Shown here piece by piece: positions 9,652 to 64,000 of a stretch of 64,000 bases of DNA. The notes beneath the pieces are model-generated. The model was not told the origin of the DNA and did no database searches. It saw nothing but the letters and a program-made list of their open reading frames with translations. Every line of letters begins with the position of its first letter. The stretch's first letter is position 1. The translations under genes and the position numbers were made by a program. The stretch comes from an uncultured Victivallis sp. (GTDB lineage Bacteria; Verrucomicrobiota; Lentisphaeria; Victivallales; GWF2-50-93), in assembly GCA_964600895.1 (NCBI GenBank), contig CAZRKP010000019.1, forward strand, positions 10,730 through 74,729. Direction: 5' to 3'.

Positions 9652-11550
9652 TTAAGCGGCCTCGTTGAACTTGTTCTCCGGAATGTAGGAGCCAAGAAGA
9701 GATTTGATGGCTTTGAGATCCTTTGATATTATAAGTCCACGGATCTTGTCAAGGTCAACCGGGAGCTGCGGTACATCTGTCTTCCTGGCGACATAGATCC
9801 GGTCGAACGGGGTCCGCTGCACCTTTTCCTCGTCGGTGAGAAGCTCCTCATATTCCTTTTCCCCTGGACGCAGTCCCGTGATCTTGATCTCGATGTCCTT
9901 GTCGGGGATGAGCCCGGAAAGCTCGATCAGCTTCCTCGCCATGTCATATATCCTGACCTGTTCTCCCATTTCAAGCACCATTATGTCCCTGTCGTGGCCG
10001 ATCGTTCCGGCCTGCAATACAAGATCCACGGCTTCAGGAATGGACATGAAATATCGGACCACGTTCTTGGAGGTGACTGTGACAGGTCCGCCTTCCTTGA
10101 TCTGCTGCTTGAAGAGAGGGATGACACTCCCGCTGCTGTCAAGGACGTTTCCAAAACGGACAACGATGAATTCCGTGGAATTATTTGGACGTTCAAGGCA
10201 CAGTCTTTCAGCGATCCTTTTGCTTGCGCCCATGATGCTGGTGGGGCATATCGCCTTGTCAGTAGAAATGAGAACCATCCTCCTGACATTGTGTTTCTCA
10301 CAGGCTTCGATGACGATTGAGGAACCGATTATATTTGTGTCGAGAGCCATCTGTGGATTTTCCTCCATCAGTGGAACATGCTTGTATGCTGCGGCATGAT
10401 AAACGACTTCAACTTTGTTTGCCGACAGGGCCGAAGAGACGTTTTCAGCAGAGCGTACATCACCAATGATGCTGATGATCTTAAGCTCAGGATGCGAATT
10501 CCGCAGTTTTCTGCTCACGTCATAGAGGTTGAATTCGGAAAGTTCGAATAAGACCAGGCATTCTGGTGCGTAGGATGCGATCTGGCGGCAAAGCTCGGAT
10601 CCGATGCTTCCACCTGCGCCTGTTACCATGATCCTTTTCCCTTTTACAAATTCAGCGACTTCAGTCCTGTCGAGTTTCACCGGCTTCCTGCCGAGAAGAT
10701 CCTCTATTTCGACATTTTTAAGGTGGGAGATGTTTATCTTGCCTGATGCAACGTCGGCATATGTCGGCACCATCCTCAGAGTGCAGTTGGAATCTACCTT
10801 CTCAAGCTGGTCCATTATCTCCCTGATGTAACTTGGTGACGAATATGGCGGGAGCAGTAGTATCTCGGAAATATTCAGTTTTTTTGCAAATTGTCCTGTC
10901 TCCTCGACATCACCCAGCACCGGTACTCCGCGTATCGATACTCCGGGATTCATGTCGTTGCCGATGATGCCGATTATATCTCGATTGCCCCAGCCTGTCG
11001 AGAATGTCTGGATGATGTTGTTCGCAGCCCCTGGTGAACCGAGTATAAGCGTCCTGACGAACTCCTTCTTGGCGCCTCTTGCCGCGGCTTCCCTTATGAT
11101 CCTGCTTAGGACTCTTTTCCCAGATACGGCGAAGAAGCAGAGCATGAAGTCCAGAATCAGCACCGATCTGGAGAATCCCTGGAAATATTGCTCCCTGAAG
11201 AAGACTATGACGACATACAATATCAGGCTAGAGACGATATTGGCCAGAAGAATCTGCATTAGATCATATATGCTCACATATCTCCACATCCCACTGTAGA
11301 CCCCGAAAAAATAGAAGACCAGCAGCTTGACGACCACCACCAGTGGCAGGGCATTGTCGAGATATGCTATTTCCTTCACTGGAAACTGGAATTCAAATCT
11401 GATATAGAAGGCAAGAAGGAATGAAAGCGCTATGGTGAATGCCGAAGTGATGAACACGAAGAAAGTCTTTGCGGGAAAAAGCTTCTGGACCACAAGCTCC
11501 AGTTGGCTGTTCAACCATACTATCAAGCTGAATTTCTTCCTGCCCGTCAT
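9652..11550 (-). CDS. Membrane-bound nucleotide-sugar 4,6-dehydratase (CapD/WbpM/PglF family)
   Basis: Four N-terminal TM helices followed by Rossmann VTGAGGSIGSEL and ISTDKAICPTSIMGASKRIAE. Start set at ATG 11550, which forms an ATGA overlap with the upstream aminotransferase stop. The track start at 11631 would give an 85-nt overlap. Confidence 0.9.
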   Translation of the reverse strand: MTGRKKFSLIVWLNSQLELVVQKLFPAKTFFVFITSAFTIALSFLLAFYIRFEFQFPVKEIAYLDNALPLVVVVKLLVFYFFGVYSGMWRYVSIYDLMQILLANIVSSLILYVVIVFFREQYFQGFSRSVLILDFMLCFFAVSGKRVLSRIIREAAARGAKKEFVRTLILGSPGAANNIIQTFSTGWGNRDIIGIIGNDMNPGVSIRGVPVLGDVEETGQFAKKLNISEILLLPPYSSPSYIREIMDQLEKVDSNCTLRMVPTYADVASGKINISHLKNVEIEDLLGRKPVKLDRTEVAEFVKGKRIMVTGAGGSIGSELCRQIASYAPECLVLFELSEFNLYDVSRKLRNSHPELKIISIIGDVRSAENVSSALSANKVEVVYHAAAYKHVPLMEENPQMALDTNIIGSSIVIEACEKHNVRRMVLISTDKAICPTSIMGASKRIAERLCLERPNNSTEFIVVRFGNVLDSSGSVIPLFKQQIKEGGPVTVTSKNVVRYFMSIPEAVDLVLQAGTIGHDRDIMVLEMGEQVRIYDMARKLIELSGLIPDKDIEIKITGLRPGEKEYEELLTDEEKVQRTPFDRIYVARKTDVPQLPVDLDKIRGLIISKDLKAIKSLLGSYIPENKFNEAA

Positions 11551-12755
11551 TGGACAATTCCCTTTAGAGTGCATATGATCTTCTTGAAGCTCTTTTCCGT
11601 GAGCCCTGGATAAATAGGCATTGAAAGACACTGGTCGGCCAGTTTCTCGGCGACTGGAAAATCCCCCTTCCTGAAACCATACTTCTCCCTGTAATAGGGA
11701 TGGAGATGCAGAGGAGTATAATGTACACTGCAGCCGATGCCCGCATCTTTCATCCGCTCATAGACCTCGTTCCTGTGGACTCCAGTTATGGAACTGTCTA
11801 TCCTTATTACATACAGGTGCCATGAATGCCGGGTACCGGGTTTTTCCTTTGGGGTGATTATGCCTGGAAGCTGTTTGAGAGCCTTGCCGTATGCATCCGC
11901 CTGCTTTTTCCTTTCAGCTAAGAACCTGCTGGCCTTTTTCAACTGGTGTATCCCGAGAGAAGCGGCTATGTCGGTCATGTTGTATTTGAATCCAGGTGCT
12001 ATGATCTCATAATACCAAGTGCCAGATTTTGTGAATCTCTTCCAAGCATCCTTGCTTATTCCATGGAGCGACATGATCCGCATCCTGTCGGCCCATGCCT
12101 GGTTGGCGGTGGTCGCCATTCCTCCTTCTCCAGTTGTGATGGTCTTGTTCGCATAGAAGGAATAGCACGCTATGTCGGCTTCTTTTCCGGCAAATTGCCA
12201 TCTGCCTCTTTCATCCTTGTAAAAGGCAGGCCCTACATGAGCAGCATCGTCAATAAGGAATAGATCATGTTTTTTACAGATCTTCCTGCATCTGTTTACA
12301 TCATATGGCTGTCCACCATAATGAACGGGAATTATTGCTTTCACTCCATTATGCTTTTTCGGAACTCCAGGGACTTTTTTCCCTGACTTGATCTTCAGTA
12401 TCGTCTCCTCCACATGGTCCAGATCGATGCAGAAATCATCTTCATTTACATCGACAAGAACAGGGATCGCATTGAAGTACCTGACAACTTCGGCAGTAGC
12501 TGCAAAAGTCATTGTCGGGACGATCACAAGATCGTCCTCCTTGATGCCTACGGCTTCGAGCGCAAGATGCAGGGCTGCGGTACAGGAGTTCACTGCAACT
12601 GCAAACCTCGCATCTGCGAACTTTGCAAAATTGGACTCGAACTGCTTTGTCCGTGTCGCGGTCGTGAGCCATCCGGATTTCAGGCAGGAGATTACCTCCC
12701 TGATTTCCTCCGGGCCTATCGAAGGGCGGTGATAATATATGAAATCATTGTTCAT
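11547..12755 (-). CDS. DegT/DnrJ/EryC1-type PLP sugar aminotransferase (PglE/WcfR-like)
   Basis: 402 aa. PLP-lysine motif SFYANKTITTGEGG. N-terminal region typical of the family (NSCTAALHLALEAVG). Confidence 0.9.
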   Translation of the reverse strand: MNNDFIYYHRPSIGPEEIREVISCLKSGWLTTATRTKQFESNFAKFADARFAVAVNSCTAALHLALEAVGIKEDDLVIVPTMTFAATAEVVRYFNAIPVLVDVNEDDFCIDLDHVEETILKIKSGKKVPGVPKKHNGVKAIIPVHYGGQPYDVNRCRKICKKHDLFLIDDAAHVGPAFYKDERGRWQFAGKEADIACYSFYANKTITTGEGGMATTANQAWADRMRIMSLHGISKDAWKRFTKSGTWYYEIIAPGFKYNMTDIAASLGIHQLKKASRFLAERKKQADAYGKALKQLPGIITPKEKPGTRHSWHLYVIRIDSSITGVHRNEVYERMKDAGIGCSVHYTPLHLHPYYREKYGFRKGDFPVAEKLADQCLSMPIYPGLTEKSFKKIICTLKGIVQ

Positions 12756-12762
12756 GGCAGTT

Positions 12763-13368
12763 TTATCCCTTCAAAACCACAAATATAGTTCCTATCAGGA
12801 TTTTTACATCATTCAGTAAGCTAATGTTCTTAACATAATCCTCATAGATCTCAAGTTTTCTCGGAAGGATCACCTTCCTGTATTCCTCCTCGGGATCCTT
12901 TGATGATGCGAGAAGTTCCTCTTCGTTCCTGAATCTGATCGAGGCAGGATCAGTAATTCCCGGAGTGGTCTGCAGGATTCCATTCCACCGCTCCTGATAA
13001 AGCTTTATGTATTGTTCGACTTCAGGCCTTGGTCCGACAAGGGACATCTCACCCTTCACTACATTTATCAGCTGGGGAAGCTCATCGACCTTGGTTTTTC
13101 GCAATATTCGGCCAATCCGAGTTATCCGCATACCCGAACCTGGCTCAAAGTCCTTGCCGTCTGTATTATCCTTGACAGTCATGGACCGAAACTTGAATAT
13201 GTCGAAGTACTTTCCATCCCTACCTCCGCGTTTCTGACGGAAGAAGACAGGTCCGGGTGAACCAAGTTTTATGCAGACTGCGACAAAGAGAAGTAATGGA
13301 GAGATGACAATGAGCGTGGATAACGCAAGAACAAGATCCAAAAATCTTTTTACAGAGGTCCTATACAT
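12763..13368 (-). CDS. Small monotopic phosphoglycosyl transferase (bacterial sugar transferase, PglC/WcfS-like), initiating enzyme
   Basis: 201 aa. KRFLDLVLAL...GPVFFRQKRGGRDGKYFDIFKFRSM, KVDELPQL, LVGPRP: the signature blocks of the Bac_transf family. Confidence 0.9.
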   Translation of the reverse strand: MYRTSVKRFLDLVLALSTLIVISPLLLFVAVCIKLGSPGPVFFRQKRGGRDGKYFDIFKFRSMTVKDNTDGKDFEPGSGMRITRIGRILRKTKVDELPQLINVVKGEMSLVGPRPEVEQYIKLYQERWNGILQTTPGITDPASIRFRNEEELLASSKDPEEEYRKVILPRKLEIYEDYVKNISLLNDVKILIGTIFVVLKG

Positions 13369-14449
13369 TTTTCCTGAACTTAAGGAGGAGGTTTATTATT
13401 TTTGAAGACGCATTTCCATCCCCATATGGGCGTGATGAGGTCTTTGAAGGCCTTTTTCTTGTGAAATTCGCAAAAGCCCTCGTGATCTTTGAAGAATTAG
13501 CCCCGGTAACGATGTTCCATCCCAGTTTGACCGTTTCAATCCATTCTGTTTCATCTCGCATGGTTATGCATGGAACTTTGTAGAAGAAAGCCTCCTTCTG
13601 CACGCCGCCGGAGTCCGTGATGATCACGGAGGCGTTCCTTTCAAGAAGCAGCATCTCAAGGTAACCGACTGGTTTGATGATTCTGATCTTTGGGGAAATC
13701 CTGAGCCTGTATTTTTCCATGAACTTGACTGTCCTGGGATGTGCAGGATAAACTACAGCCGTCTTAAGAGAGATGCTGTTTATGGCGTCGATAATCTCTT
13801 TGAGACGTTTTTTGTCGTCGGTGTTTTCGGCCCTGTGGCAGGTCAAAAGGACATAATTCCCCTTTTCAAGAGACATTTTCCGCAATGGATCACATCTTCG
13901 AGTTGCTATTTTGGTAAAAAGAAGAGAGCAATCATACATCACATCACCGACCAGTGATGCTGTTTTAGCAAGATTTTCATCCTTGAGATTTTTCATGGCT
14001 GTAGAGGTGGAACAGAAATTGATGTCAGAAAGATGGTCGGCGACAATCCTGTTTATCTCTTCAGGCATTTTTTTGTTGAAGGAGCGCATCCCAGCCTCAA
14101 TATGGGCGAGGGGAATGTGCAACTTGGAAGCTGCCAGGGCGCCAGCCAGGGTTGAATTGGTGTCGCCATATATGAGCACCATGTCCGGTTTTTCCCTTAG
14201 GAGGACTTTTTCCAGGGCCTCAAGCATCCTTCCGGTCTGCCTGCCATGTGTATCGGAACCTATTCGGAGATTGTATTTTTCACGCGGAACCCGGAGCTCC
14301 TTGAAAAATATTTCCGACATGTCATGGTCGTAATGCTGTCCGGTATGGATTATGACTTCGCGTATGGAACTGTGTCTTGCAAATTCCGCAGACACAGCCG
14401 CTGCCTTTATGAACTGTGGCCTTGCTCCGATTACGGTGCAGATTTTCAT
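13361..14449 (-). CDS. wecB: UDP-N-acetylglucosamine(-uronate) 2-epimerase, non-hydrolysing type (WecB/WbpI-like)
   Basis: GARPQFIK, HTGQHYD, HIEAGMRSFNKKMPEEINR, TDSGGVQKEA. Start set at the second ATG (14449, MKICTV) because GGAGA lies 5 nt upstream. The track start is 14461. Confidence 0.85.
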   Translation of the reverse strand: MKICTVIGARPQFIKAAAVSAEFARHSSIREVIIHTGQHYDHDMSEIFFKELRVPREKYNLRIGSDTHGRQTGRMLEALEKVLLREKPDMVLIYGDTNSTLAGALAASKLHIPLAHIEAGMRSFNKKMPEEINRIVADHLSDINFCSTSTAMKNLKDENLAKTASLVGDVMYDCSLLFTKIATRRCDPLRKMSLEKGNYVLLTCHRAENTDDKKRLKEIIDAINSISLKTAVVYPAHPRTVKFMEKYRLRISPKIRIIKPVGYLEMLLLERNASVIITDSGGVQKEAFFYKVPCITMRDETEWIETVKLGWNIVTGANSSKITRAFANFTRKRPSKTSSRPYGDGNASSKIINLLLKFRKNV

Positions 14450-14504
14450 CGCTTTCTCCATTTACTCATGAAAATTCACTTTAAATATAGACGGGATATT
14501 GGTG

Positions 14505-14533
14505 TTGACAAGAAGAATTCCTTTCGATTAATA
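14505..14533 (+). promoter_or_regulatory. Candidate sigma70-type promoter for the MIF-like gene
   Basis: Consensus TTGACA at 14505-14510, a 17-nt spacer, then TTAATA at 14528-14533. It lies about 95 nt upstream of ATG 14628 in the divergent gap. Pattern match only. Confidence 0.25.
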
Positions 14534-14984: not shown

Positions 14985-15617
14985 CTATTGCTTTATAACT
15001 GCGATGATGTGCGTGCGCAGGAAAGGCAGAAGAGATTCAAGCATGTCGGCGGCAAGATTTGAACGTGGGGCTATTGCTCTTGCCAGCGGTGGGGCTAGAG
15101 TGATTCTGGTAAATTTACATTTCCATGGATAGAAAAGATCTTTCACTTCATTTTTCCCTATTCCTCTCACGTCGGGATTTTTCGGACTGTCGAAAGTAAA
15201 GTCATACCAGAGGATAAATCCATCTTTTTTGCAAACGCGCTTCATCTCGGATGCAATCTTCTTTCTGGTGTTGGCATCCTTGACGGAAGTGAAGACGGTG
15301 GACTGGAAGACTACATCGAAAGTTCCATCACCCCATTGTAGATTATCAGCATTTCCCTCACGAATGTCTGCACCGACTATCCTGTCCTTAGCGGATCTTG
15401 CACGTTTAGGATCAAGTTCGATGCCGGCCAGGTTGCATGGCATGAATCCGAAGGTCTGAAATTCCGCGAGCCATTGCCCATTGCCGCAGCCGATCTCGAG
15501 GAACCTTGTATTTTCGACACCATTTGGATAGGCTGAAGCAAATATTTTACGAAATTCGCGCTGGCGCCTTTGTATCATGGAGAAAGCCGCAGGATGAAGT
15601 GGGGAATATATGTTCAC
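14985..15617 (-). CDS. Class I SAM-dependent methyltransferase
   Basis: 210 aa with the SAM-binding motif FLEIGCGNGQW. The GTG start overlaps the upstream GT stop (GTGA). An ATG at codon 14 is an alternative start. Confidence 0.75.
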   Translation of the reverse strand: MNIYSPLHPAAFSMIQRRQREFRKIFASAYPNGVENTRFLEIGCGNGQWLAEFQTFGFMPCNLAGIELDPKRARSAKDRIVGADIREGNADNLQWGDGTFDVVFQSTVFTSVKDANTRKKIASEMKRVCKKDGFILWYDFTFDSPKNPDVRGIGKNEVKDLFYPWKCKFTRITLAPPLARAIAPRSNLAADMLESLLPFLRTHIIAVIKQ

Positions 15618-16831
15618 TTGATCTTCTCCAGCTCATTCATGAACTCGTCTGCTAGTTTCGCACGATCGAATGACGCAGATACGAATTCCCTTCCTTTTAC
15701 ACCCATTTCCTTGCGTGAATCCGGGCTCATTTTTGCCAGCTCCCTTATCATCTCGACGAGTTTTTCTGGATTTTCAGGAGGAACAACCTTTGCGCATCCG
15801 CTCTTCATTGCCAGATCTGCACCTTCCCCTTTTCCACAGAATATAAAGGGGATCTGTCCCCCCATGAGTTCGAACATCTTAGAAGGACGCGCTCCGTCAA
15901 AAAGAGGAATGTTCCTCAGCGGTACCAAGGCGACATCCCACAACGCTTGAATCTGAGACATCTTCTTTCTCGGTTGGGAGGGGAACAGTCTTATGTTTTT
16001 TAGTCCCGTTTCGGAGATCTTCTTTTCAAGGGATGGTTTTTCAGGTCCGTCGCCGAAAAGAGCAAAGAAGATCTTTTCATTCTGGAGCACCATCGCAGTT
16101 TCAAAGATCTGTTCAAGAGCCTGCGATCTGCCATGGTTTCCCCCATATCCGACAATGAAACAGTCTTCAGGAATACCAAGTTCCTTTTTGAGCACAGGAT
16201 CTGGTCTTTCAGGAACAAACATCTCAAGATCAACCCCATTCGGAAACAGGAATGTCTTTGCCTCAGGAAGTCTTTTCTTTACACCGTCTACAATTCCCTC
16301 TGTCTGGCAGGATACTAGAACTGATTCTCTATAGAGCAGCTTTTCAAACCATTCAAGGAAACTGAGAGAGGGACCTGGACCTATCATTCCGAGTTGAACG
16401 GCACTCTCTGGCCACAAGTCACTTATGTTCATAACAAGCTTTGTCCCCTTGATGTATTTGAGGAACAGTGCAGTGAATCCCAAGAACAGAGGGGGGCTTT
16501 CACATATGAGGAAATCAGTCCTATCCAGCTTAAGAAGACCGATAAGCCCCGAGGTCTTAACAAATGAAAAATAGCAGATCAGCTGTTTGAACGTGCTCTT
16601 CTTGCCGGGTAATATCCAGCTACGTATGACTTTGACTCCGTCAATTACCTCAGAAAGTGAAAACTTGCCTCTGTATTCCGGGAAAACTTTTCCTGCAGGA
16701 TAGTTCGGCATTGCAGTAAGCACTGTGACCTCATGTCCTTTCGTCACCCAGCGCCTTGCCAGATCATGGAGCCTATTCTGAGGAGCCCCATGCTCCGGAG
16801 GATAATACTGTGTTAGAATAGTTATCTTCAC
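15614..16831 (-). CDS. GT4-family glycosyltransferase (WbuB-like)
   Basis: 405 aa. The N-terminus MKITILTQYYPPEHGAPQNRLHDLARRW is typical of WbuB-type GT4 enzymes. C-terminal GT-B nucleotide-sugar binding half. Confidence 0.85.
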   Translation of the reverse strand: MKITILTQYYPPEHGAPQNRLHDLARRWVTKGHEVTVLTAMPNYPAGKVFPEYRGKFSLSEVIDGVKVIRSWILPGKKSTFKQLICYFSFVKTSGLIGLLKLDRTDFLICESPPLFLGFTALFLKYIKGTKLVMNISDLWPESAVQLGMIGPGPSLSFLEWFEKLLYRESVLVSCQTEGIVDGVKKRLPEAKTFLFPNGVDLEMFVPERPDPVLKKELGIPEDCFIVGYGGNHGRSQALEQIFETAMVLQNEKIFFALFGDGPEKPSLEKKISETGLKNIRLFPSQPRKKMSQIQALWDVALVPLRNIPLFDGARPSKMFELMGGQIPFIFCGKGEGADLAMKSGCAKVVPPENPEKLVEMIRELAKMSPDSRKEMGVKGREFVSASFDRAKLADEFMNELEKIK

Positions 16832-29881: not shown

Positions 29882-29882
29882 T

Positions 29883-41578: not shown

Positions 41579-41638
41579 GACGGTTATTAAAAACAAATCC
41601 TCAATTTATTAGTCTCTCTATTCTTTCAAAAAAAGGGA

Positions 41639-57227: not shown

Positions 57228-58179
57228 GATATCTCAGCACTTTACCGTATTTCATGTTGAATTTGGGGAGCTTTATTCCAAGGAGATGCTTGATGGTGTA
57301 TTCTACTTCGTTAATCCCGAAGAAGCATCTTACATATGTTGTGCCGGAAAATCTGGCGTTAATCTCGAAGAGTTTCGGTTTCCTCCCATCATTATCAAGC
57401 CTTAACTGGTAGTTACATGGTCCAAAAGGCTTAAGTTTCTCTGATATCATAGTGATGTAATCGTAAATGGTTTTTGGGGTGTTGGGTGAGTTATATGCTG
57501 CATATGTGTTTCCATGCCTAAGGGTCCTACGAAGACTTATTGATGTCTTCACTTCATCTTCAAAGAACAATACTCCACAGGTGTATTCGTCAGACATTCT
57601 GCCGACATTCTCCTGTATCACTGGTTTTTTTAATGTTTTCAGCGTATGCATGAGTTCTCGGCGATTCTTTACAAGAGAAAGACCTCGACTACCTGAACTC
57701 GTCCTAGGCTTGACAATCGCAGGATAACGCACCTTGTCAATTTCATTGGGAAGCCATGTATCTGGACAGGAAATCCCCTTTTTCTTGAGAAATAGATATG
57801 TCTTATATTTGTCCTCTGCAACATCTATTACTTTTTCACTGCTGACAATGACAGTGCATCCTGTCTCATGCTCAATGATCCTTCTATTCTTAGCTAAAAC
57901 TTCCAGCTCGAAGCCCATTCCCACGAAAAGTAATTTCAATCTATGCTTCTTTATATAAAAGATGAGAGCTTCGATAAAGGAGTCTATTTGTGTTTTATCC
58001 TTAAGTATGTCGGGCATGATGTATGTTCTGTTTACCCAGTGAGAACCAAGAGTGCCGTCGAAATATTCGAAACCTGTAATATCTGTCTTTTCGGAAAGAT
58101 CTGATTTTCTGATGGATCTGATGATTCCTTGCCCGACGAGGGAATCTACGCAGGTTATTCCGATATTGATCTTCTTCAT
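57193..58179 (-). CDS. ATP-grasp ligase
   Basis: Start set at ATG 58179 (MKKINIG), which forms an ATGA overlap with the PHP gene stop. YPAIVKPRTSSGSRG and KLFEINARFSGT are ATP-grasp signatures. Confidence 0.8.
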   Translation of the reverse strand: MKKINIGITCVDSLVGQGIIRSIRKSDLSEKTDITGFEYFDGTLGSHWVNRTYIMPDILKDKTQIDSFIEALIFYIKKHRLKLLFVGMGFELEVLAKNRRIIEHETGCTVIVSSEKVIDVAEDKYKTYLFLKKKGISCPDTWLPNEIDKVRYPAIVKPRTSSGSRGLSLVKNRRELMHTLKTLKKPVIQENVGRMSDEYTCGVLFFEDEVKTSISLRRTLRHGNTYAAYNSPNTPKTIYDYITMISEKLKPFGPCNYQLRLDNDGRKPKLFEINARFSGTTYVRCFFGINEVEYTIKHLLGIKLPKFNMKYGKVLRYLEEYFVEDSND

Positions 58180-58892
58180 TTGCCCACCCGATGTTTCCTT
58201 AGTAGTTTCAGGCATTCTCCTGTTTCCGAAACGTTGTGAGCGTCTGAGCCTATCGATATTGCCGGATTATACTTCTCCAGTAGCACAAGCAGTTCTTTGA
58301 TGATGTTGGAATGGTATCTTGAATTGATCTCGAATGCGGTTTCAGTAGCTGCACATTTTAAGATTAAATCTTCCATAAGATCCATGCTGAACCCTCCGGC
58401 AAAGGAATTGGACATTCCTCCAACATGGCCAAGAATATCGGCCTGTCCTGATTTCAATAGTCCCAAGTAGAGCCTGTATTCGCACTCCTGAAGCTTTTCC
58501 AGTGGTTTGAAGAATTCGGGATGGAGGAATTTACCATTATCAACGGGGATGCTGTGTACGCTGCCTATTATCAAATGCTTGTTTCTGGAACAATATTCTG
58601 GGATATCGAGATTTCCGTTAAAATCCTTGATCTTGGCCTCGAAGCCGGCATAAAGTTCAATTTTAGAATTTCTTGCTATAGTCTTGATTTCCCCTACAAA
58701 ATCCTTGCAGTAGGAGGAATTCTTTCTGACATGGTCAGTAAAAGCTATCATCCTTAATCCTTTTTCTACTGCCACATCCAGCATTTCCACTGAAGTGTTT
58801 TCTCCATCCGTCCAAACAGTATGAATATGCATGTCAGAAAGCAAATCGAACTTAGAAAGAGTCCTGAATCTCTTGAAAATGGGCTTGTTCAT
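58176..58892 (-). CDS. PHP-domain (histidinol-phosphatase-like) metal-dependent phosphoesterase
   Basis: 238 aa. DMHIHTVWTDG, IAFTDH, GSVH, GHVG, IGSDAH follow the PHP His/Asp ligand pattern. ATGA overlap with the NeuB-family gene stop. Confidence 0.75.
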   Translation of the reverse strand: MNKPIFKRFRTLSKFDLLSDMHIHTVWTDGENTSVEMLDVAVEKGLRMIAFTDHVRKNSSYCKDFVGEIKTIARNSKIELYAGFEAKIKDFNGNLDIPEYCSRNKHLIIGSVHSIPVDNGKFLHPEFFKPLEKLQECEYRLYLGLLKSGQADILGHVGGMSNSFAGGFSMDLMEDLILKCAATETAFEINSRYHSNIIKELLVLLEKYNPAISIGSDAHNVSETGECLKLLRKHRVGK

Positions 58893-59926
58893 TTTAATGT
58901 CTTGAAGTCGAAAAGATCTTCTTTGCTGAGATTAACGAGTAACTTTCTGCCGATGACATTGTCCATTTTGCACGGTGGAATGCCGGTTCCGGGTCGCTTT
59001 GCAACTATATGTTTCCTCGTAATCACCGTACCTACTTTTATATCACATGCCGCCATCAGGCTTCGTCTCATGTGTTTTGCATTATCGAGCTCAGCCTGCT
59101 GTATTTTCTTGTTCCTGCAACCGAGACCTGCTTCGACCTGCCTTATGCCTTTTACCATTTCTCTGAGTTCCTGAGGTTCGATCGATGCTGGTTGGTCGAC
59201 TCCTGGGAGATTTCTGCTGAGCGTGAAATGCTTTTCGAGAATCTTTGCACCGAGTGCGGCAGCGGCAATGCCCATGTAAATTCCTTTGCTGTGATCGGAG
59301 AATCCAACAGGGCACTTGAACTCCTTGTGTAGAATTTCCATCGCACGCATATTCAGGTCTTTGTATGGAGTAGGATACTGTGCCGTGCATTGCATGAGGG
59401 CAAATTGTCTTCCCCCGTTCTTTAGATATGTTTCAATGCCATGGCGGATTTCCGGTATGGTCGACATTGCCGTTGAAAATATAGCAGGAATTCCAGTCTC
59501 ACCCAAGGCCGAAAGCAGGTAGTCGTTGTTCATATCAGCCGACGCGATCTTTATCGCTTCTGAACCGATGTCCGATAGGATCGCAAGGCCATCGATATCG
59601 CAGGCGGTCGATAGGAATTCAATCCCGATCTCCTTGCAGGCATCCTTAAGGTCCTTGAACTGTTCCTTAGTAAACTGTATAGAATCATAGAAATCCTTCT
59701 TTGTCCTGTACCTGTGACGGCCTTTGAAATATTCAGGCATCGTTGAATTTTTTGATTCACTCGATTCATATGTGAATGTTTGGAATTTCACGCAGTTCGC
59801 GCCTGATTCTTTAGCTTTCCTAATGAGATGGATGGCCTGGTCGAAATTCCCGTTGTGGTTTACTCCAGCTTCCGCAATAATGAAGACATGCTTGTTCTTC
59901 AATATGTTTTTATCAAACCAGTTCAT
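58889..59926 (-). CDS. neuB: Nonulosonic acid synthase (NeuB/LegI/PseI family) with C-terminal SAF domain
   Basis: 345 aa. FIIAEAGVNHNGNFDQAIHLIRKAKESGANCVKFQTF, GFSDHS, and a C-terminal SAF-like AACDIKVGTVITRKHIVAKRPGTGIPP. The symbol denotes the family only. Sugar specificity is unknown. Confidence 0.9.
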   Translation of the reverse strand: MNWFDKNILKNKHVFIIAEAGVNHNGNFDQAIHLIRKAKESGANCVKFQTFTYESSESKNSTMPEYFKGRHRYRTKKDFYDSIQFTKEQFKDLKDACKEIGIEFLSTACDIDGLAILSDIGSEAIKIASADMNNDYLLSALGETGIPAIFSTAMSTIPEIRHGIETYLKNGGRQFALMQCTAQYPTPYKDLNMRAMEILHKEFKCPVGFSDHSKGIYMGIAAAALGAKILEKHFTLSRNLPGVDQPASIEPQELREMVKGIRQVEAGLGCRNKKIQQAELDNAKHMRRSLMAACDIKVGTVITRKHIVAKRPGTGIPPCKMDNVIGRKLLVNLSKEDLFDFKTLK

Positions 59927-60647
59927 TTAGTTTCTCCATTATTGCATTGCATATTATAAGGTCCTTCTGTGTGTCTATGTCCATGGAATATAAAGGATCA
60001 GTCGCTAGAAGCTTCATCTTTTTCCCATATAGAGGACCACCAGCAAGGATAGTGCTTACTTTGATCACATCGACAAGTCCGTTAAGCGAGTAAGCAGGAG
60101 GGAGAAGTTGGCGCTGGTGGTATTTTTTTATGTCTATACCATCGACGAACGGCGAAGCTATTCCTTTGGAGTCAGCTTTGTACATCCAATAAGGATGGTG
60201 CTTGCCTTGGATCATGTCAACTGTTCTCAAGGAATCGCAGTCGCATGAGTTAATTGCTCTTATGGCTTCTGAAACATGGACTGCTTTTCTAAGAGGAGAT
60301 GTACAGCGAAGATTCACGATGTAATCGCACTCATAGCCCTCCTTCTCCTTAAGCCATTCGATTAGATGAATCATTACTGGGCGATCCGGGGTATCTGACT
60401 GAGCAATTTCATTAGGACGCATGAATGGAACTTCAGCACCATATTTCCTGCCAATATTAGCGATTTCTTCGTCGTCGGTACTAACAATTACACGGTCGAG
60501 TTCAGGGCATTCCAGTCCAGATTTGATGGCGTAATATATAAGAGGTTTACCACAGAGAAGTGCAAGGTTTTTCATTGGTATGCCTTTGGAGCCCCCTCTG
60601 GCCATAACAATTGCAACTATTTTAACAGATTTTGATTTGATAGACAT
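59913..60647 (-). CDS. neuA: Acylneuraminate (nonulosonate) cytidylyltransferase (NeuA/LegF/PseF family)
   Basis: 244 aa. VAIVMARGGSKGIPMKNL and the family-typical VSTDDEEI. The symbol denotes the family only. Confidence 0.9.
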   Translation of the reverse strand: MSIKSKSVKIVAIVMARGGSKGIPMKNLALLCGKPLIYYAIKSGLECPELDRVIVSTDDEEIANIGRKYGAEVPFMRPNEIAQSDTPDRPVMIHLIEWLKEKEGYECDYIVNLRCTSPLRKAVHVSEAIRAINSCDCDSLRTVDMIQGKHHPYWMYKADSKGIASPFVDGIDIKKYHQRQLLPPAYSLNGLVDVIKVSTILAGGPLYGKKMKLLATDPLYSMDIDTQKDLIICNAIMEKLNELV

Positions 60648-60649
60648 TA

Positions 60650-61996
60650 TTAGATTTTAACCGAGTTGACAAGAGAAGATGAAATCAGTTTGTGATTTTC
60701 AGGATCTTTAAGTATGTTTTCAATAACATGATCAAATTCTTCGTGGGCTCTTGCAAGCAATTCATCGTAGATAAAAAAACCATAATCATTTTCAATCGAA
60801 TCCCTGTTCCTAAACTTTCTGTATTTTAAATTAAGATAATCCAAGGTTCTTATAATCCTGAAAGGAAGAATGGATCTCATGGGGGATTTAGAAGGATTTT
60901 TATTTAGAGTATTAACAATATCAAGAGCAACCTTTAAAATTGATGAACCTTCGCTTTTTAAGTCATAGATCTCATGAATAAGATGTTCGGTAGATTCATC
61001 GTAGAATGTCAACTTGTCGTAATGGGATATTTTATAGTAAAGATCATCGAAATTGCAAGGTGTATTGTTTGATACAGATGTTAATAGCTGGGAAGGAACT
61101 ATATCGCTATATATTTTAAGATCGGACCCGCATAACTGAGTTAAATTTATAAAAGGTATTTTCGCGATTGCAAGAAGAGAGATAGTTGTAGAGATGCCAT
61201 TCCCAATTATAATATCCTGCTGGCCAGCCCATGTGGAAAAATCAAAAGATTCATTAATTGAAATATTATTAGTCTTTATATAGTTAATATCCTGATAGAG
61301 GTTCTTTTTTTCAAGAGGATATGGACGGAGGCTAATCTCATATTTATCTTTATCAAGAGTGCTAATAATATCAAGCATGATTTTTAAGTATTTAATCTGT
61401 AGAAATATCTCCTCCCATGTATAGATGTCATCCTTTTTGTCATAAAGGTGCTTAAGAAGGTAAAGATCCTTTTTTGTAGAATTAATCAGCCAGAAACTTC
61501 CTATAAATCCAATTTTAATTTTTCCAGTCTTATTTCGTTTTCTTCTGAATTTAATAATGTCTCCTCGCATATTTCCCACTACTTTAAATATTGAATCAAA
61601 CAATTCTTCTTTTGCCCCCGGGTTTTTCATATAAATATTAAATAAATGTTTTCTAGGTATCTCGCCCCAGAGATGAATCCGTGAAAATTTACATAGAAAT
61701 TCAGGATCAGAAGTTATTTTTGATTCATTTATATGGTAGGTGACGCTGCCTTCTGCAGAACACATAAATGGCATTGCATTAGGATAAGATTTAATAAGTT
61801 TTTCGGCTTTTGATGGTGTAACAAAAAAAACAGCATCAGGATTCCAAAGCTTGATGGGAATGGACGCAATGTTTGCATTATTCGCAATAATGCACTTGCA
61901 ACCGAAACGTTCCAGTAAACGAGAAAGAATAAATGAAATACCGAAATCGCGATTGAAAGTCATTGAATGTATAAGGATTTTCCAGTTCTTATTCAT
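60650..61996 (-). CDS. Hypothetical protein (448 aa), candidate nonulosonate transferase or other surface-carbohydrate enzyme
   Basis: Long ORF starting 3 nt after the cytidylyltransferase gene. Rossmann-like segments (KIKIGFIGSFWL..., DIIIGNGISTTISLLAIAKIPFINL). No motif I can assign. Confidence 0.5.
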   Translation of the reverse strand: MNKNWKILIHSMTFNRDFGISFILSRLLERFGCKCIIANNANIASIPIKLWNPDAVFFVTPSKAEKLIKSYPNAMPFMCSAEGSVTYHINESKITSDPEFLCKFSRIHLWGEIPRKHLFNIYMKNPGAKEELFDSIFKVVGNMRGDIIKFRRKRNKTGKIKIGFIGSFWLINSTKKDLYLLKHLYDKKDDIYTWEEIFLQIKYLKIMLDIISTLDKDKYEISLRPYPLEKKNLYQDINYIKTNNISINESFDFSTWAGQQDIIIGNGISTTISLLAIAKIPFINLTQLCGSDLKIYSDIVPSQLLTSVSNNTPCNFDDLYYKISHYDKLTFYDESTEHLIHEIYDLKSEGSSILKVALDIVNTLNKNPSKSPMRSILPFRIIRTLDYLNLKYRKFRNRDSIENDYGFFIYDELLARAHEEFDHVIENILKDPENHKLISSSLVNSVKI

Positions 61997-62038: not shown

Positions 62039-62998
62039 TTAATCGTTAATGGTATAATCATAACATCCAGAGCAAAGTGGCAATTCGTCATGGCGCATTT
62101 CAGCTAGCATTTTACGATATGTCATCATTTTTTTTGATATCCATATTTCTTTTAAGGTGTTTGTTTTTAAATCTCCAACAAGCATCTTATTGTCATAGTC
62201 GAAACAACAAGCACTTACTGTGCCGTCCCAGTTTATTGAAAGTTTATCAAATACTTCTGGACATTCAACATGCTTCCTTAATACGGTGTCTTTACTTTTT
62301 AAATAAAGTAATAAAGATTTTTTATTATCATCAAGGGTTGTTTCGTCAGGATCTATGTGATTAAATAAAGTTTTACCAATTGATAAAAGGTCAACATAAT
62401 CTTTAATTGATTTCTTAAAAAGTTCTATCTGCTTCGCTGTCTCATATGTAGTTGTAGTTGAGAGATGGATGTAGGGCAGAATGCTGTTTCCACGTTTGGC
62501 GTATAGTAATTTGACCCTGCTGATAAGCTCATCAAAGAAATCAATGTTGCGGGTTTCGGAGTAGCTTATTGTATCAATACCCTGAAATGAAAATTTTATA
62601 CTGTCCAATTTGATTTCCAATAATTTATCAATCATCTTTTCATCAAGCATACTGCCATTAGTATTAATATGGACAATTGAACCATGATGCTTAAGTTCTG
62701 TGACATACTCGATTAACCTTGGATGAAGAAAGGGTTCTCCCCATCTTATGAGTCGCACGGGAGTTTTGTAATGGGTTATTTGGTCAAGAATATTCTTATA
62801 AGTGTTATGGTTCATAACACCTTTCTGTCTTTTAACTGTTCCAAGGCCTGTTGGGCACATCAAGCATTGAAAATTGCATAAGTTAGTTAATTCGAGATCA
62901 ATGTATCTTGGAAAAGGGGGTAATGAATTGAGTTTTTCCATCGAATTACCCTTATTGCATGCGTCATATATTGATTTAAATGGATTGATCCTTTTCAT
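62039..62998 (-). CDS. Radical SAM / SPASM-domain enzyme, second copy
   Basis: 319 aa. LELTNLCNFQCLMC (CxxxCxxC). C-terminal VECPEVFDKLSINWDGTVSACCFDYD...LPLCSGCYDY. Confidence 0.8.
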   Translation of the reverse strand: MKRINPFKSIYDACNKGNSMEKLNSLPPFPRYIDLELTNLCNFQCLMCPTGLGTVKRQKGVMNHNTYKNILDQITHYKTPVRLIRWGEPFLHPRLIEYVTELKHHGSIVHINTNGSMLDEKMIDKLLEIKLDSIKFSFQGIDTISYSETRNIDFFDELISRVKLLYAKRGNSILPYIHLSTTTTYETAKQIELFKKSIKDYVDLLSIGKTLFNHIDPDETTLDDNKKSLLLYLKSKDTVLRKHVECPEVFDKLSINWDGTVSACCFDYDNKMLVGDLKTNTLKEIWISKKMMTYRKMLAEMRHDELPLCSGCYDYTIND

Positions 62999-63096: not shown

Positions 63097-63645
63097 TTAA
63101 TCGATGGATCTAATTAGTTTTGCTGGGTTTCCTGCATATAATGTCCGTGCCGGGACATTCTTAGTAACAATACTTCCAGCTCCTACAACAGAATTTTCAC
63201 CAATTTCAACACCTGGAAGGATAATTGAGTTGGCGCCAATCCAGCAACCCTTGTGTAATATAACGTGACTGAATTTGAAGGAACCTTGTTCAATTATAGG
63301 GACATTAGGATTTTTAAATTGGTGATTGGATACATAAATATGAACACCTTGGCCCATCATTACATCATCCTCAATGGTGATAAAGCCATTAGTATCTGAA
63401 AAAATCACAGATCCTGGACGAACTATAACACGGTTACCTAAATGTATGCGGGAACAGCATATAGCATATGCACCGGGACGGACTTCAGAATGAGTACCAA
63501 AGTATGCAAATTTGCGTTTGCAAAGAGCTTTCATTGTTGACTTGAAATGTAATCGCCAATGAGTTGAAGGAAAATCTGGTCCTATGCGATCTTGACTATT
63601 CATCCACCGAATTCGTTTCCATGCTTCAAAAATGAATGAGAGCAT
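63097..63645 (-). CDS. LbH (hexapeptide) O-/N-acetyltransferase (maltose/galactoside acetyltransferase-like)
   Basis: 182 aa. CWIGANSIILPGVEIGENSVVGAGSIVTKNVPARTLYAGNPAKLI. Confidence 0.8.
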   Translation of the reverse strand: MLSFIFEAWKRIRWMNSQDRIGPDFPSTHWRLHFKSTMKALCKRKFAYFGTHSEVRPGAYAICCSRIHLGNRVIVRPGSVIFSDTNGFITIEDDVMMGQGVHIYVSNHQFKNPNVPIIEQGSFKFSHVILHKGCWIGANSIILPGVEIGENSVVGAGSIVTKNVPARTLYAGNPAKLIRSID

Positions 63646-63669
63646 AAAAATACCTTATTAAATAAATTA

Positions 63670-64000
63670 TTATTTTGACTGCTTCATGTGGGGTCTGAGG
63701 ATAAGGCCTCCATCAAGGAGAAGGCCATCGAGTTCTGAATTCATGAATACTTCATAAGCCTCAGTTGCAGTATTAACTATTGGATAACCATGGAGGTTGA
63801 AAGAGGTGTTCATAAGGGCTCCGCGACCTGTTATTTTAGAAAAACACTCGAGCAGATCATAAAGATCCGGATTTGCATTTTTTGTCAGTATCTGAGCTCT
63901 TGCGCTTTTATCAGCACTATGACATGCAGCTTTCATGCTTTTCCAGCCTTCTTCTGTTGTCTCATATCCTATTGTCATATGGGGAGATTGGATATTTTTA
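63670..64000 (-). CDS. NodU/CmcH-type carbamoyltransferase, C-terminal part only (5' end beyond the window)
   Basis: The reading frame stays open upstream of the track Met (codons 63979-63999 read KNIQSPH with no stop). The tail KSARAQILTKNANPDLYDLLECFSKITGRGALMNTSFNLHGYPIV aligns with the C-terminus of the 587-aa carbamoyltransferase at 32635..34398. Confidence 0.8.
   Translation of the reverse strand, partial: KNIQSPHMTIGYETTEEGWKSMKAACHSADKSARAQILTKNANPDLYDLLECFSKITGRGALMNTSFNLHGYPIVNTATEAYEVFMNSELDGLLLDGGLILRPHMKQSK

Follow-up and report, generated by a model that had tools for sequence, protein, structure and literature searches.

Two kinds of known systems are among those closest to the locus analyzed here. 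In the Campylobacter jejuni pgl system and the Helicobacter pylori Wzk route, assembly of a lipid-linked oligosaccharide takes place in the cytoplasm, and a transporter of the ABCB type (ATP-binding cassette [ABC] class) then flips it; a row of PglF-like, DegT, and PglC-type genes, as in the present locus, follows the bacillosamine-type initiation logic of the C. jejuni pgl loci. In Pseudomonas aeruginosa wbp loci, WbpM is accompanied by WbpB, WbpE, and WbpD for the synthesis of 2,3-diacetamido uronic acids and, in O6, by the amidotransferase WbpS; similar loci are found in Francisella and Escherichia coli O121. Loci that combine a phosphoglycosyl transferase, GT4 enzymes, and an exporter of the ABCB type are of a known kind. 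The stretch examined here, 64,000 nucleotides of contig CAZRKP010000019.1 from an uncultured Victivallis sp. (the window, in which positions are counted from the first nucleotide), carries a locus of more than 55 kb in which, according to open reading frame (ORF) listing and translation, 42 minus-strand genes extend from position 9652 to the window edge. We put a probability of about 0.6 on the reading that it is a lineage-conserved cell-envelope glycan biosynthesis locus of uncultured Lentisphaerota (Planctomycetes-Verrucomicrobia-Chlamydiae [PVC] group, Victivallales-like), the single lipid-linked product of which would be flipped by the ABC transporter.

Pfam searches reproduced the family counts given in an earlier, sequence-only reading of this DNA: one phosphoglycosyl transferase, five GT4 enzymes, three DegT aminotransferases, three left-handed beta-helix (LbH) acyltransferases, five AsnB-type proteins, three carbamoyltransferases, four radical S-adenosylmethionine (SAM) enzymes, three methyltransferases, one ABC exporter, and a NeuB/NeuA module. 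This inventory of enzyme families supports the view taken there that the array is a glycan biosynthesis locus, and it now also includes families absent from that account, namely a PglF/WbpM dehydratase, WecB, a GFO oxidoreductase, a metallophosphoesterase, ATP-grasp, PHP, and TIM-barrel proteins, two short-chain dehydrogenase/reductase (SDR) proteins, and two families without annotation, referred to here as unk535 and unk448. The comparison set consisted of 126 fetched loci (labeled L008, L087, and so on). Among them, “Lentisphaerae bacterium GWF2_49_21” was compared by means of three stretches (L124, L096, and L008) of MHBH01000054.1 (92,749 nt) that tile approximately 60 kb.

As in the pgl and Wzk systems, a PglF-type dehydratase, a DegT aminotransferase, and a PglC-type phosphoglycosyl transferase are encoded in a row, by contiguous genes. 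The dehydratase gene (9652..11631; unless stated otherwise, genes lie on the minus strand) specifies a PglF/WbpM/CapD-type, membrane-anchored NDP-HexNAc 4,6-dehydratase (Pfam Polysacc_synt_2, E 2e-114, plus CoA_binding_3) with N-terminal hydrophobic segments, a likely start at 11574 or 11550, and 84 to 85% amino acid identity to its GWF2_49_21 counterpart. DegT aminotransferase 1 (11547..12755; Pfam DegT, E 9e-115) is PglE/PseC-like and scores 360 bits against the NCBIfam PseC model, below the cut-off of 423. The phosphoglycosyl transferase (12763..13368; 201 aa; Pfam Bac_transf, E 8e-57) has one N-terminal hydrophobic helix and is the only initiating transferase in the window. It is followed by WecB (13361..14461), a non-hydrolyzing UDP-GlcNAc 2-epimerase that reaches 342 bits against TIGR00236 (cut-off 210) and 88 bits against the NeuC model, and that represents the sole equivalog-level NCBIfam assignment in the array. 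As in the wbp loci, a WbpM/PglF-like dehydratase thus shares the locus with a GFO/DegT/LbH trio and with AsnB-family amidotransferases. The trio consists of DegT aminotransferase 2, in a WbpE-like position (23763..24866; Pfam DegT, E 1.5e-125), the WbpD/PglD-like hexapeptide-repeat N-acetyltransferase LbH1 (25112..25768; Pfam Hexapep, with a sub-threshold match to the NCBIfam NeuD/PglB/VioB family), and a Pfam-assigned GFO/IDH/MocA oxidoreductase of the WbpB or UDP-GlcNAc 3-dehydrogenase-like type (25774..26766), the top NCBIfam match of which is to an archaeal UDP-GlcNAc 3-dehydrogenase (146 bits, below the cut-off). These three proteins appear to resemble the WbpB/WbpD/WbpE trio for 2,3-diacetamido sugars.

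The five GT4 glycosyltransferases were all assigned by Pfam. GT4a (15614..16831) has GT4 domains and is WcaI-like, matching the NCBIfam WcaI family at 179 bits, below the cut-off; the others are GT4b (22654..23742), GT4c (26859..27968), GT4d (29883..31076), and GT4e (43421..44620). A Glyco_trans_1_2-like protein (44788..45870; Pfam E 5e-4, below the cut-off) is a candidate transferase, and distant loci likewise combine its gene with those for FkbM, the AsnB-like protein, and unk535. A metallophosphoesterase (31076..32611; Pfam Metallophos_2) has one transmembrane helix, at residues 285 to 303, and a C-terminal part that yielded no family match; it is conserved in L096 and L098. Like the pgl and Wzk loci, the window has a single half-transporter in which a transmembrane domain (TMD) is fused to a nucleotide-binding domain (NBD). 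This ABCB-type protein, of the MsbA/PglK/HepA class (41639..43411; Pfam ABC_membrane and ABC_tran; six hydrophobic segments), has ABCB1 and MsbA as its PDB matches and is the only exporter in the window and, besides the anchor of the dehydratase, the only polytopic protein. Pfam and hydrophobicity analysis of the 64-kb window revealed no Wzx, Wzy, or Wzz/Wzc, and no Wzm/Wzt or KpsMT-type transporter is present in it. Because the ABC exporter is the only protein with multiple transmembrane segments, a Wzx, Wzy, WaaL, or STT3 is not encoded there. Gene content therefore departs from that of a Wzx/Wzy-dependent locus and accords with a PglK/Wzk-type route, that is, a fused TMD-NBD exporter without a Wzx in the window; the phosphoglycosyl transferase, the dedicated nucleotide-sugar genes, and the several glycosyltransferases of the window likewise accord with a locus for a surface glycan assembled on undecaprenyl phosphate.

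The differences from these systems are also substantial. Unlike the pgl and Wzk loci, the one described here exceeds them about fourfold in size, encodes some 20 tailoring enzymes, lacks PglB and WaaL within the window, includes a nonulosonic acid module, and has an ABC protein that is not a PglK orthologue. Unlike the wbp loci, it has five AsnB paralogues rather than one, the window has no WbpA/Ugd-type 6-dehydrogenase, Wzx, Wzy, or Wzz, and all the relevant matches lie below equivalog cut-offs. As in XrtA/PEP-CTERM loci, genes for AsnB-type amidotransferases are interleaved with GT4 genes, and TIGR03108, TIGR03088, and TIGR04063 are among the better-scoring NCBIfam models for AsnB2 and several GT4 proteins. 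The scores nevertheless set the two apart (475 versus 817 bits for TIGR03108 and at most 91 versus 409 for TIGR03088), and the window has no exosortase, PEP-CTERM protein, or Wza/Wzc-type export gene. Such scores do not place the array demonstrably in any curated family set.

In the scheme that we favor, for which we infer the sugar identities and the order of steps from enzyme families, the pgl-like module (PglF-like 4,6-dehydratase, DegT, and N-acetyltransferase) would make a 2,4-diamino-2,4,6-trideoxyhexose, the WbpB/E/D-like trio (GFO oxidoreductase, DegT, and LbH) a 2,3-diacetamido sugar, WecB UDP-ManNAc, and the NeuB/NeuA module, by a non-canonical route, a CMP-activated nonulosonic acid of the legionaminic or neuraminic type. 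The single PglC-type phosphoglycosyl transferase would start the chain on undecaprenyl phosphate, and the five GT4 enzymes would extend it in the cytoplasm, probably together with the Glyco_trans_1_2-like protein, unk448, and unk535. Tailoring would act on nucleotide-linked or lipid-linked intermediates, through a set of enzymes predicted to comprise four AsnB proteins and one AsnB-like protein, three O-carbamoyltransferases, three SAM methyltransferases, two B12-type and two SPASM radical SAM enzymes, and three acyltransferases. On the most economical reading, the glycan would be completed in the cytoplasm, either as an oligosaccharide of roughly seven to nine residues or as a processively made chain. 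The ABCB-type half-transporter would then flip the finished lipid-linked glycan, as PglK or Wzk does, and a ligase or oligosaccharyltransferase encoded elsewhere would presumably transfer it to lipid A-core or to protein.

Several observations weigh against this scheme. The ABC protein falls well short of the NCBIfam cut-offs for HepA (303 bits versus 725), MsbA (291 versus 602), and PglK (220 versus 1000), so that its sequence scores do not make it an orthologue of PglK, Wzk, or MsbA, and the substrate proposed for it is deduced from genetic context only. The 64-kb window has no acceptor-side enzyme (WaaL, PglB/STT3, or PglL), polymerase, or chain-length regulator. Almost all NCBIfam hits lie below equivalog cut-offs, which makes assignments of specific sugars weak. 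The window contains no recognizable NeuC/LegG/PseG-type enzyme, its sole Epimerase_2 protein being of the WecB type, and no Glyco_tran_28_C domain, and no UDP-sugar 6-dehydrogenase (UDPG_MGDP_dh) was detected by Pfam among its ORFs. Finally, a gene on the opposite strand, eight larger gaps between genes, most of them AT rich, and GC contents that range from 0.32 to 0.49 argue for several transcription units and a mosaic origin.

Set against these points is the conservation of the array. Proteins identical to those of the window were found on metagenome contigs only. A genome scan with the PglF-like protein placed the window in the Lentisphaerota, with GWF2_49_21 as the top match (85%) and MAGs (metagenome-assembled genomes) of Victivallis and Victivallales as the next best, and homologues of the initiation block are present in a Victivallis vadensis MAG. 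Over window positions 7099 to 56860 the array is collinear with that of GWF2_49_21, with gene-sized insertions and deletions, at 65 to 82% nucleotide and 39 to 94% amino acid identity. The order in GWF2_49_21 is ATP-grasp, SDR epimerase, LbH, radical SAM/SPASM, SDR, TIM barrel, UDP-sugar dehydrogenase, PseB-like, methyltransferase, DegT, unk535, B12-type radical SAM, a 383-aa protein, MBOAT, FkbM, IS200-type transposase, Glyco_trans_1_2-like, CN_hydrolase, DUF123, GT4e, ABC, AsnB5, AsnB4, AsnB-like, carbamoyltransferase, metallophosphoesterase, GT4d, AsnB2, GT4c, GFO, LbH1, DegT2, GT4b, AsnB1, GT4a, methyltransferase 1, WecB, phosphoglycosyl transferase, DegT1, PglF-like, and AraC. Such collinearity argues for a lineage-conserved locus rather than a chance pile-up of genes, and the maintenance of gene order across roughly 20 to 35% nucleotide divergence suggests that the blocks belong together functionally. 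In addition, the block ABC-AsnB5-AsnB4-AsnB-like-carbamoyltransferase-GT4d-GT4c is kept on three further metagenome contigs. The locus is thus not a one-off, as the array is collinear in a related MAG and its sub-blocks recur in other metagenomes and phyla. Relative to GWF2_49_21, the window has gained a gene for a fusion of an SGNH hydrolase domain to a carbamoyltransferase, the first B12-type radical SAM gene (40064-41596), and a MIF gene; it is without the MBOAT, CN_hydrolase, DUF123, and transposase genes; and a CBS-fused aminotransferase replaces the dehydrogenase, PseB-like enzyme, and DegT protein. The array evolves through the gain and loss of cassettes, in the manner of O-antigen and capsule loci.

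The same comparisons bear on an alternative that we consider unlikely while giving it real weight, namely that the array is a composite of two systems with separate regulation and acceptors, one a pgl/O-unit-like pathway for an amino-sugar oligosaccharide (about 9.6 to 44.6 kb) and the other an independent nonulosonic-acid glycosylation system that would have transferases of its own (about 47 to 64 kb and beyond). The NeuB module is indeed found in other surroundings, lying beside a canonical pseudaminic acid cluster in two loci and adjoining its own 544-aa unk535 homologue and an ABC exporter in another, but the window holds only one phosphoglycosyl transferase and one exporter to serve both halves. 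The proposed boundary coincides with AT-rich gaps at 44621-44787 (GC content, 0.27) and 46877-47022 (GC content, 0.19), GC content differs between blocks of the array, divergence and rearrangement relative to GWF2_49_21 are greatest in the distal part, and in that genome an IS200-type transposase gene separates FkbM from the Glyco_trans_1_2-like gene. Even so, the two halves are adjacent in GWF2_49_21, in the same order and orientation, and the AsnB pair, GT4e-like, Glyco_trans_1_2-like, FkbM, DegT, NeuB, and unk535 genes are found together in distant contigs from marine, Desulfovibrionaceae, and Oligoflexia sources.

The combination of AsnB, radical SAM, carbamoyltransferase, DegT, and ABC genes could also be read as a pathway for an exported small molecule (aminoglycoside-like, nucleoside-like, or a modified peptide), which we regard as highly improbable. 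The closest solved relatives of several proteins do come from antibiotic pathways (TobZ, GdmN, NovN, AprD4, and BtrN), but these PDB matches reflect which family members have been crystallized. An ABCB exporter is present, and the AsnB proteins cross-match the lasso-peptide cyclase model; their scores are, however, below its cut-off of 525, and four of them keep the glutaminase with an N-terminal Cys, which lasso cyclases do not use. Moreover, GT4 genes are interspersed among the AsnB genes, with translational coupling between the two, and the locus has a lipid-carrier-dependent phosphoglycosyl transferase as well as NeuA and NeuB. The gaps in the AsnB block are 3 to 51 nt long and contain no ORFs, leaving no room for a precursor peptide, and there is no protease. 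A ribosomally synthesized and posttranslationally modified peptide (RiPP) or lasso reading of the AsnB block was rejected on account of the intact glutaminases, the lack of precursor space, the coupling to GT4 genes, and the lack of a protease.

The part of the locus that departs most clearly from described pathways is the NeuB/NeuA module. Like the legionaminic acid pathways of C. jejuni (LegB/C/H/G/I/F) and Bacillus subtilis (Sps; PMC7439481), it encodes a NeuB/LegI-like synthase, a LegC-family aminotransferase, an LbH acyltransferase, and a CMP-transferase. The synthase (58889..59926; Pfam NeuB, E 1e-77) reaches 350 bits against the NCBIfam NeuB model (cut-off 400) and 257 against PseI, so that it is nearer to the NeuB/LegI model than to PseI, and the CMP-nonulosonic acid synthetase of the NeuA/LegF/PseF type (59913..60647; Pfam CTP_transf_3, E 1e-22) likewise lies below its equivalog cut-off. 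The LegC-family aminotransferase (51088..52572; Pfam DegT, E 8e-129; NCBIfam LegC, 376 bits, cut-off 420) is fused to a CBS domain. Unlike the legionaminic pathways, however, the module lacks both a LegG/NeuC/SpsG-type hydrolyzing 2-epimerase and LegB; a synthase and a CMP-transferase of the canonical Neu, Leg, and Pse schemes are thus present, and the hydrolyzing 2-epimerase and dedicated dehydratase are not. There is no LegB/PseB 4,6-dehydratase in the module, and the only dehydratase in the window is the PglF-like protein encoded 45 kb away; the modules of relatives do carry a PseB-like gene. In B. subtilis, a UDP-linked legionaminic acid route is fed by a PglF-type dehydratase (PMC7439481), and by analogy the PglF-like dehydratase could feed the NeuB module here.

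In further contrast to the legionaminic pathways, the module adds a radical SAM/SPASM enzyme, a TIM-barrel protein, an SDR, a second SDR epimerase, an ATP-grasp protein, and a PHP protein, besides the CBS domain on the aminotransferase. The PHP-domain phosphoesterase (58176..58892; Pfam PHP) and the ATP-grasp ligase (57193..58215; Pfam ATP-grasp_3) follow NeuB; the latter exceeds the cut-off of NCBIfam NF009402 (270 bits versus 218), an uninformative “carbamoyl phosphate synthase-like” model. Next come an extended SDR epimerase/reductase (56319..57227; Pfam Epimerase, not LegB/PseB-like, its best NCBIfam matches being heptose epimerase and GalE, all sub-threshold), hexapeptide-repeat acyltransferase 2 (55271..56308; Pfam), which has an N-terminal domain of about 200 aa without a match, radical SAM/SPASM enzyme 1 (54198..55247; Pfam Radical_SAM and SPASM), a classical short-chain dehydrogenase (53482..54186; Pfam adh_short), and a xylose-isomerase-like TIM barrel, or “sugar phosphate isomerase/epimerase” (52580..53488; Pfam AP_endonuc_2). 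The TIM-barrel subfamily is small, with 58 homologues, and adjoins NeuB modules in all four of the contexts examined. SPASM enzyme 1 is the best-conserved protein of the module, with 88% amino acid identity in L088; among proteins of solved structure, it is nearest to a tetraether-lipid synthase (7tol, E 6.4e-9) and to BtrN (E 1e-8). In butirosin biosynthesis, the radical SAM dehydrogenase BtrN has a DegT-family aminotransferase as its partner, and this pairing leads us to suggest that SPASM enzyme 1 and the CBS-aminotransferase may act as an oxidize-then-transaminate pair. We also suggest that the PHP enzyme, the TIM-barrel protein, or unk535 may supply the release and epimerization step usually carried out by NeuC, LegG, or PseG.

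The module order unk448, (SGNH-like), NeuA, NeuB, PHP, ATP-grasp, SDR, LbH, radical SAM/SPASM, SDR, TIM barrel, CBS enzyme recurs in four places: a Victivallis MAG (L088), a Logan contig (L091), a 160-kb JGI contig, and, in part, GWF2_49_21. Two contigs carry a shorter variant, with unk448, NeuA, NeuB, a FemAB-like acyltransferase, radical SAM/SPASM, TIM barrel, CBS-DegT, unk535, and B12-type radical SAM, and a looser version is found in an Omnitrophica contig; parts of the set and its flanking families recur in Omnitrophica, Desulfovibrionaceae, and Oligoflexia. In some variants the CBS-aminotransferase is swapped for a CBS-UDP-sugar dehydrogenase together with PseB-like and DegT proteins. 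GWF2_49_21 has this dehydrogenase, PseB-like, and DegT combination, although its dehydrogenase shows no CBS domain. In two loci (L088:968-8366 and L092:1-1409), a complete canonical pseudaminic acid cluster (PseB, PseC, PseF, a PseG/H fusion, and PseI) lies directly upstream of unk448-NeuA-NeuB, so that the module that follows is a second, different pathway.

Taken together, these findings allow a broader proposal, which we consider doubtful and put forward tentatively: the NeuB module (about 47 to 62 kb) might be a cross-phylum, non-canonical pathway to a new type of nonulosonic acid. A BtrN-like radical SAM dehydrogenase with its aminotransferase, a TIM-barrel epimerase, and the PHP protein or unk535 would then replace NeuC/LegG/PseG and some of the dehydratase logic, unk448 would represent nonulosonic acid transferases of a new family, and AsnB together with the glutaminase-less AsnB would modify this sugar.

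The two unannotated families both have GT-B-like folds. unk448 (60650..61996; 448 aa) and unk535 (48507..50114; 535 aa) gave no sequence match in Pfam, NCBIfam, or the PDB. unk448 is rare: a word search of 5.8 billion proteins returned 12 homologues and a profile search of 1.84 billion returned 377 representative clusters; its AlphaFold2 (AF2) model (pLDDT 82) was assigned a GT-B fold by Foldseek, with a capsule polymerase (8a0m, E 2.5e-7) as the best match. In every context examined, unk448 lies just upstream of NeuA-NeuB, with an SGNH-like gene intervening in some loci, and because of this constant position it is the leading candidate for the transferase of the nonulosonic acid. For unk535 there are 35 homologues and a model of higher confidence (pLDDT 92), which in Foldseek matches GT-B transferases as well as NeuC/UDP-GlcNAc 2-epimerases (E about 1e-4; TM-scores of 0.3 to 0.46). 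Since TM-scores of 0.3 to 0.5 are too weak to separate a transferase from a hydrolase or epimerase, they establish only the fold class of the two proteins. unk535 may accordingly be a transferase or a NeuC/PseG-like nucleotide-sugar enzyme, and it could possibly replace the NeuC step. Its homologues directly follow DegT in five other loci and lie beside DegT in a sixth, and in four loci a gene for a B12-type radical SAM enzyme comes next; the sources of these loci are Lentisphaerota, a cultured member of the Desulfovibrionaceae, and an Oligoflexia MAG. In Fundidesulfovibrio magnetotacticus (L125; BLTE01000012.1, 97741-119348), DegT, unk535, B12-type radical SAM, AsnB, and AsnB-like genes stand in a row with an ABCB exporter nearby, and there is no NeuB within the 21 kb fetched.

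Tailoring genes make up much of the remainder of the array. The five AsnB-type proteins are glutamine-dependent amidotransferases 1 (20807..22675; Pfam Asn_synthase and GATase_7), 2 (27968..29920; Pfam), 4 (36291..38144; Pfam), and 5 (38148..40019; Pfam) and an AsnB-like protein with the synthetase domain only (34450..36285; Asn_synthase, E 1e-18, and weak GATase_7). AsnB2 probably starts at the ATG at 29881, giving MCGIS, and scores 475 bits against the NCBIfam model for the XrtA/PEP-CTERM amidotransferase (TIGR03108). Four of the five begin with MCG followed by I (AsnB1 and AsnB4 have MCGI) or F (MCGF in AsnB5) and so keep the N-terminal Cys nucleophile (GATase_7, E 1e-43 to 1e-48); the glutaminase region of the AsnB-like protein is vestigial and lacks Cys2. 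The five are at most 34% identical to one another, and within every family identity between paralogues does not exceed 44%, or 38% when the alignment is full length, which indicates old, distinct enzymes and rules out a recent tandem duplication. The glutaminase-less gene adjoins that of a full-length AsnB in every fetched locus in which its neighbors are visible, including marine contigs and F. magnetotacticus (32 to 41% identity), and in Lentisphaerota-type loci it also adjoins a carbamoyltransferase gene. It is a reasonable hypothesis that AsnB and the AsnB-like protein form a putative two-protein amidoligase. In marine and other metagenome contigs (L113-L123), AsnB-like homologues lie near GT4e-like, Glyco_trans_1_2-like, FkbM, LegC-like DegT, and NeuB genes, which suggests that these genes form an unnamed toolkit that is widespread and linked to nonulosonic acids.

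AsnB-type enzymes of glycan loci usually act on a uronic acid. For WbpS-type uronamide formation, the glutamine-dependent AsnB proteins are present and the UDP-sugar 6-dehydrogenase is missing from the window, so that carboxylates for the four active AsnB enzymes are unaccounted for; a UDP-sugar dehydrogenase is present within the GWF2_49_21 locus. Possible sources are a dehydrogenase encoded elsewhere in the genome, the carboxylate of the nonulosonic acid, and amino acid side chains attached by the ATP-grasp enzyme. At the level of families, it is fair to conclude that the glycan carries a nonulosonic acid and is aminated, N-acylated, methylated, carbamoylated, and amidated; “acidic” and “amidated at many positions,” as in the sequence-only reading, overstate the case.

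Three O-carbamoyltransferases, clearly of the TobZ/NodU family, were found. As in TobZ, NodU, and CmcH, both the Kae1-like and the YrdC-like domains are present; unlike those systems, three copies occur in one glycan locus, and one of them has an N-terminal SGNH domain unseen in the fetched relatives. This protein (17071..20352; 1093 aa; Pfam Carbam_trans_N, Carbam_trans_C, and Lipase_GDSL_2) is a fusion of an SGNH hydrolase domain to a TobZ/NodU-type O-carbamoyltransferase that matches TobZ, GdmN, and a carbamoyltransferase in the PDB (E 1e-76 to 1e-84). Its gene has a GC content of 0.37, is flanked by AT-rich gaps (239 and 454 nt), and has no counterpart in GWF2_49_21. None of the 126 fetched loci has a homologue of the SGNH part, and the idea that this part corresponds to the SGNH-like gene found between unk448 and NeuA elsewhere was rejected for want of similarity. 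When the two flanking gaps were aligned to the intergenic region of GWF2_49_21, there was no clear homology or target duplication. O-carbamoyltransferase 2 (32635..34398; Carbam_trans_N and Carbam_trans_C) is 85% identical at the amino acid level to that of GWF2_49_21, and its gene adjoins the AsnB-like gene in six loci; the third is represented by its 3′ part at the window edge (63670..64000; Carbam_trans_C positions 77 to 168). The methyltransferases are class I SAM methyltransferase 1 (14985..15617; Methyltransf_11 and Methyltransf_25), an FkbM-family enzyme (45896..46876; Methyltransf_21, with the NCBIfam fkbM domain above its cut-off), and class I SAM methyltransferase 3 (50136..51071; Methyltransf_23). 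Among the radical SAM proteins, B12-binding-domain enzyme 1 (40064..41596; Pfam) is an insertion relative to GWF2_49_21, and B12-binding-domain enzyme 2 (47023..48510; Pfam), homologues of which directly follow unk535 homologues in four loci, has AprD4 as its best solved relative (E 1.8e-16). To judge from their sequences, these two may be C-methyltransferases or AprD4-like sugar dehydratases. Radical SAM/SPASM enzyme 2 (62039..62998; Pfam) and hexapeptide-repeat acyltransferase 3 (63097..63645; Pfam) complete the set.

Each of these tailoring chemistries is individually known in bacterial glycans, and environmental bacteria commonly have glycan loci that are large, mosaic, and heavily tailored. 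The locus is thus ordinary in kind, its density of tailoring genes being high and not different in principle. Literature searches found no paper linking the gene set or the Lentisphaerota to a solved glycan, suggesting that the product is undescribed, and no characterized surface glycan for the Lentisphaerota and their PVC relatives; neither these searches nor the fetched loci yielded a syntenic locus tied to a solved glycan structure, and to that extent the claim of novelty in the sequence-only reading stands. The claim of undescribed biology holds more narrowly than it was made, for the non-canonical NeuB module, the two GT-B-fold families, and the AsnB/AsnB/AsnB-like/carbamoyltransferase block rather than for the whole locus, and what could be new is the recurrent module, the unannotated families, and the AsnB pair. 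The analysis provides a concrete, lineage-conserved gene set for a Lentisphaerota surface glycan; a recurrent nonulosonic acid module outside the Neu, Leg, and Pse schemes with a highly conserved radical SAM/SPASM enzyme; two GT-B-fold families without annotation, one of them beside NeuA/NeuB in every context examined; and an AsnB gene conserved beside a glutaminase-less AsnB-like gene and, in Lentisphaerota-type loci, beside a carbamoyltransferase gene as well. Because cultured F. magnetotacticus has homologues of part of the set and a Victivallis vadensis MAG has those of the initiation block, this chemistry is within reach of experiment. If the module makes only a decorated legionaminic acid, the locus would be one more diverse O-antigen-like locus.

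The organization of the array also differs in part from what had been proposed. The count of 42 minus-strand ORFs was correct, but they are not consecutive, because a plus-strand gene of the MIF/tautomerase family (14628-14972; Pfam MIF, E 7.6e-18) interrupts the run, so that 42 of 43 genes are codirectional. The MIF protein has 114 aa and starts MPLIKI, with GGAGG preceding the ATG; the gene lies in a 523-nt minus-strand gap between WecB and methyltransferase 1, separating the WecB-phosphoglycosyl transferase-DegT1-PglF-like group from the rest of the array, and is not found in GWF2_49_21, where the equivalent gap is 113 nt. A minus-strand ORF at 14528-14869 has no family match and is a shadow of the MIF gene. 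The seven stop/start overlaps named previously are all present on the minus strand: ATGA at 11547-50, 48507-10, 58176-79, and 58889-92, TGATG at 31074-78, TAATG at 27966-70, and GTGA at 15614-17. Of the 41 junctions, 13 are overlaps and 20 have gaps of 2 to 51 nt, so that 33 of 41 overlap or are separated by at most 51 nt; the remaining 8 have gaps of 92 to 523 nt. These eight gaps, the opposite-strand gene, and the gene-sized insertions and deletions relative to GWF2_49_21 speak against the array as one seamless unit. The six scanned gaps without an ORF of at least 25 aa have GC contents of 0.15 to 0.27, compared with 0.32 to 0.49 for genes, and insertions relative to GWF2_49_21 coincide with AT-rich gaps. 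Scans of the whole locus for consensus promoters and terminators gave counts not above those for shuffled sequence, and no gap of the array held a convincing minus-strand terminator. From gene spacing, we infer several transcription units, in about nine tightly packed blocks, the largest having 16 and 11 genes. Rfam at gathering thresholds and a tRNA search found nothing in the window, and the ops/JUMPStart core GGCGGTAG was not found in it.

Within the array, DegT2 and LbH1 (23763-25768) share 94.5% and 92% identity with the orthologues in GWF2_49_21, compared with 46 to 85% for their neighbors, which points to very strong constraint or to a recent exchange of this segment. At the place of the 245-nt gap between them in the window (24867-25111), GWF2_49_21 has extra ORFs (L096:21300-21827 and L008:1-760), encoding, as read from their translations, a signal-peptide-bearing protein and a putative small antitoxin/PIN-toxin pair, and this gap is another site of cassette insertion. 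A 62-aa ORF at 24943-25131 was considered as a remnant of the extra gene of GWF2_49_21 and rejected, as it showed no significant similarity.

The 55 kb in the window are not the whole locus: the window edge truncates the last gene, leaving a C-terminal carbamoyltransferase fragment at 63670-64000, and upstream the organism's own contig continues (L087:3-758) with the full 593-aa carbamoyltransferase, followed by an NTP_transferase (sugar-phosphate nucleotidylyltransferase; E 1e-35). At the other end, the first 8.7 kb of the window (1-8.7 kb) contains housekeeping genes (a Ser/Thr kinase, MreC, and PBP2), and an AraC-family protein (8724..9695; Pfam HTH_18, HTH_AraC, and AraC_binding) encoded directly downstream of the locus is a candidate regulator of it; its gene occupies the same place in GWF2_49_21, with 80% amino acid identity. 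Between PBP2 and the small gene that follows it, GWF2_49_21 has approximately 6.4 kb of extra sequence (L008:14336-20769 versus window positions 8262-8700), showing that the housekeeping flank is also rearranged between the two genomes.

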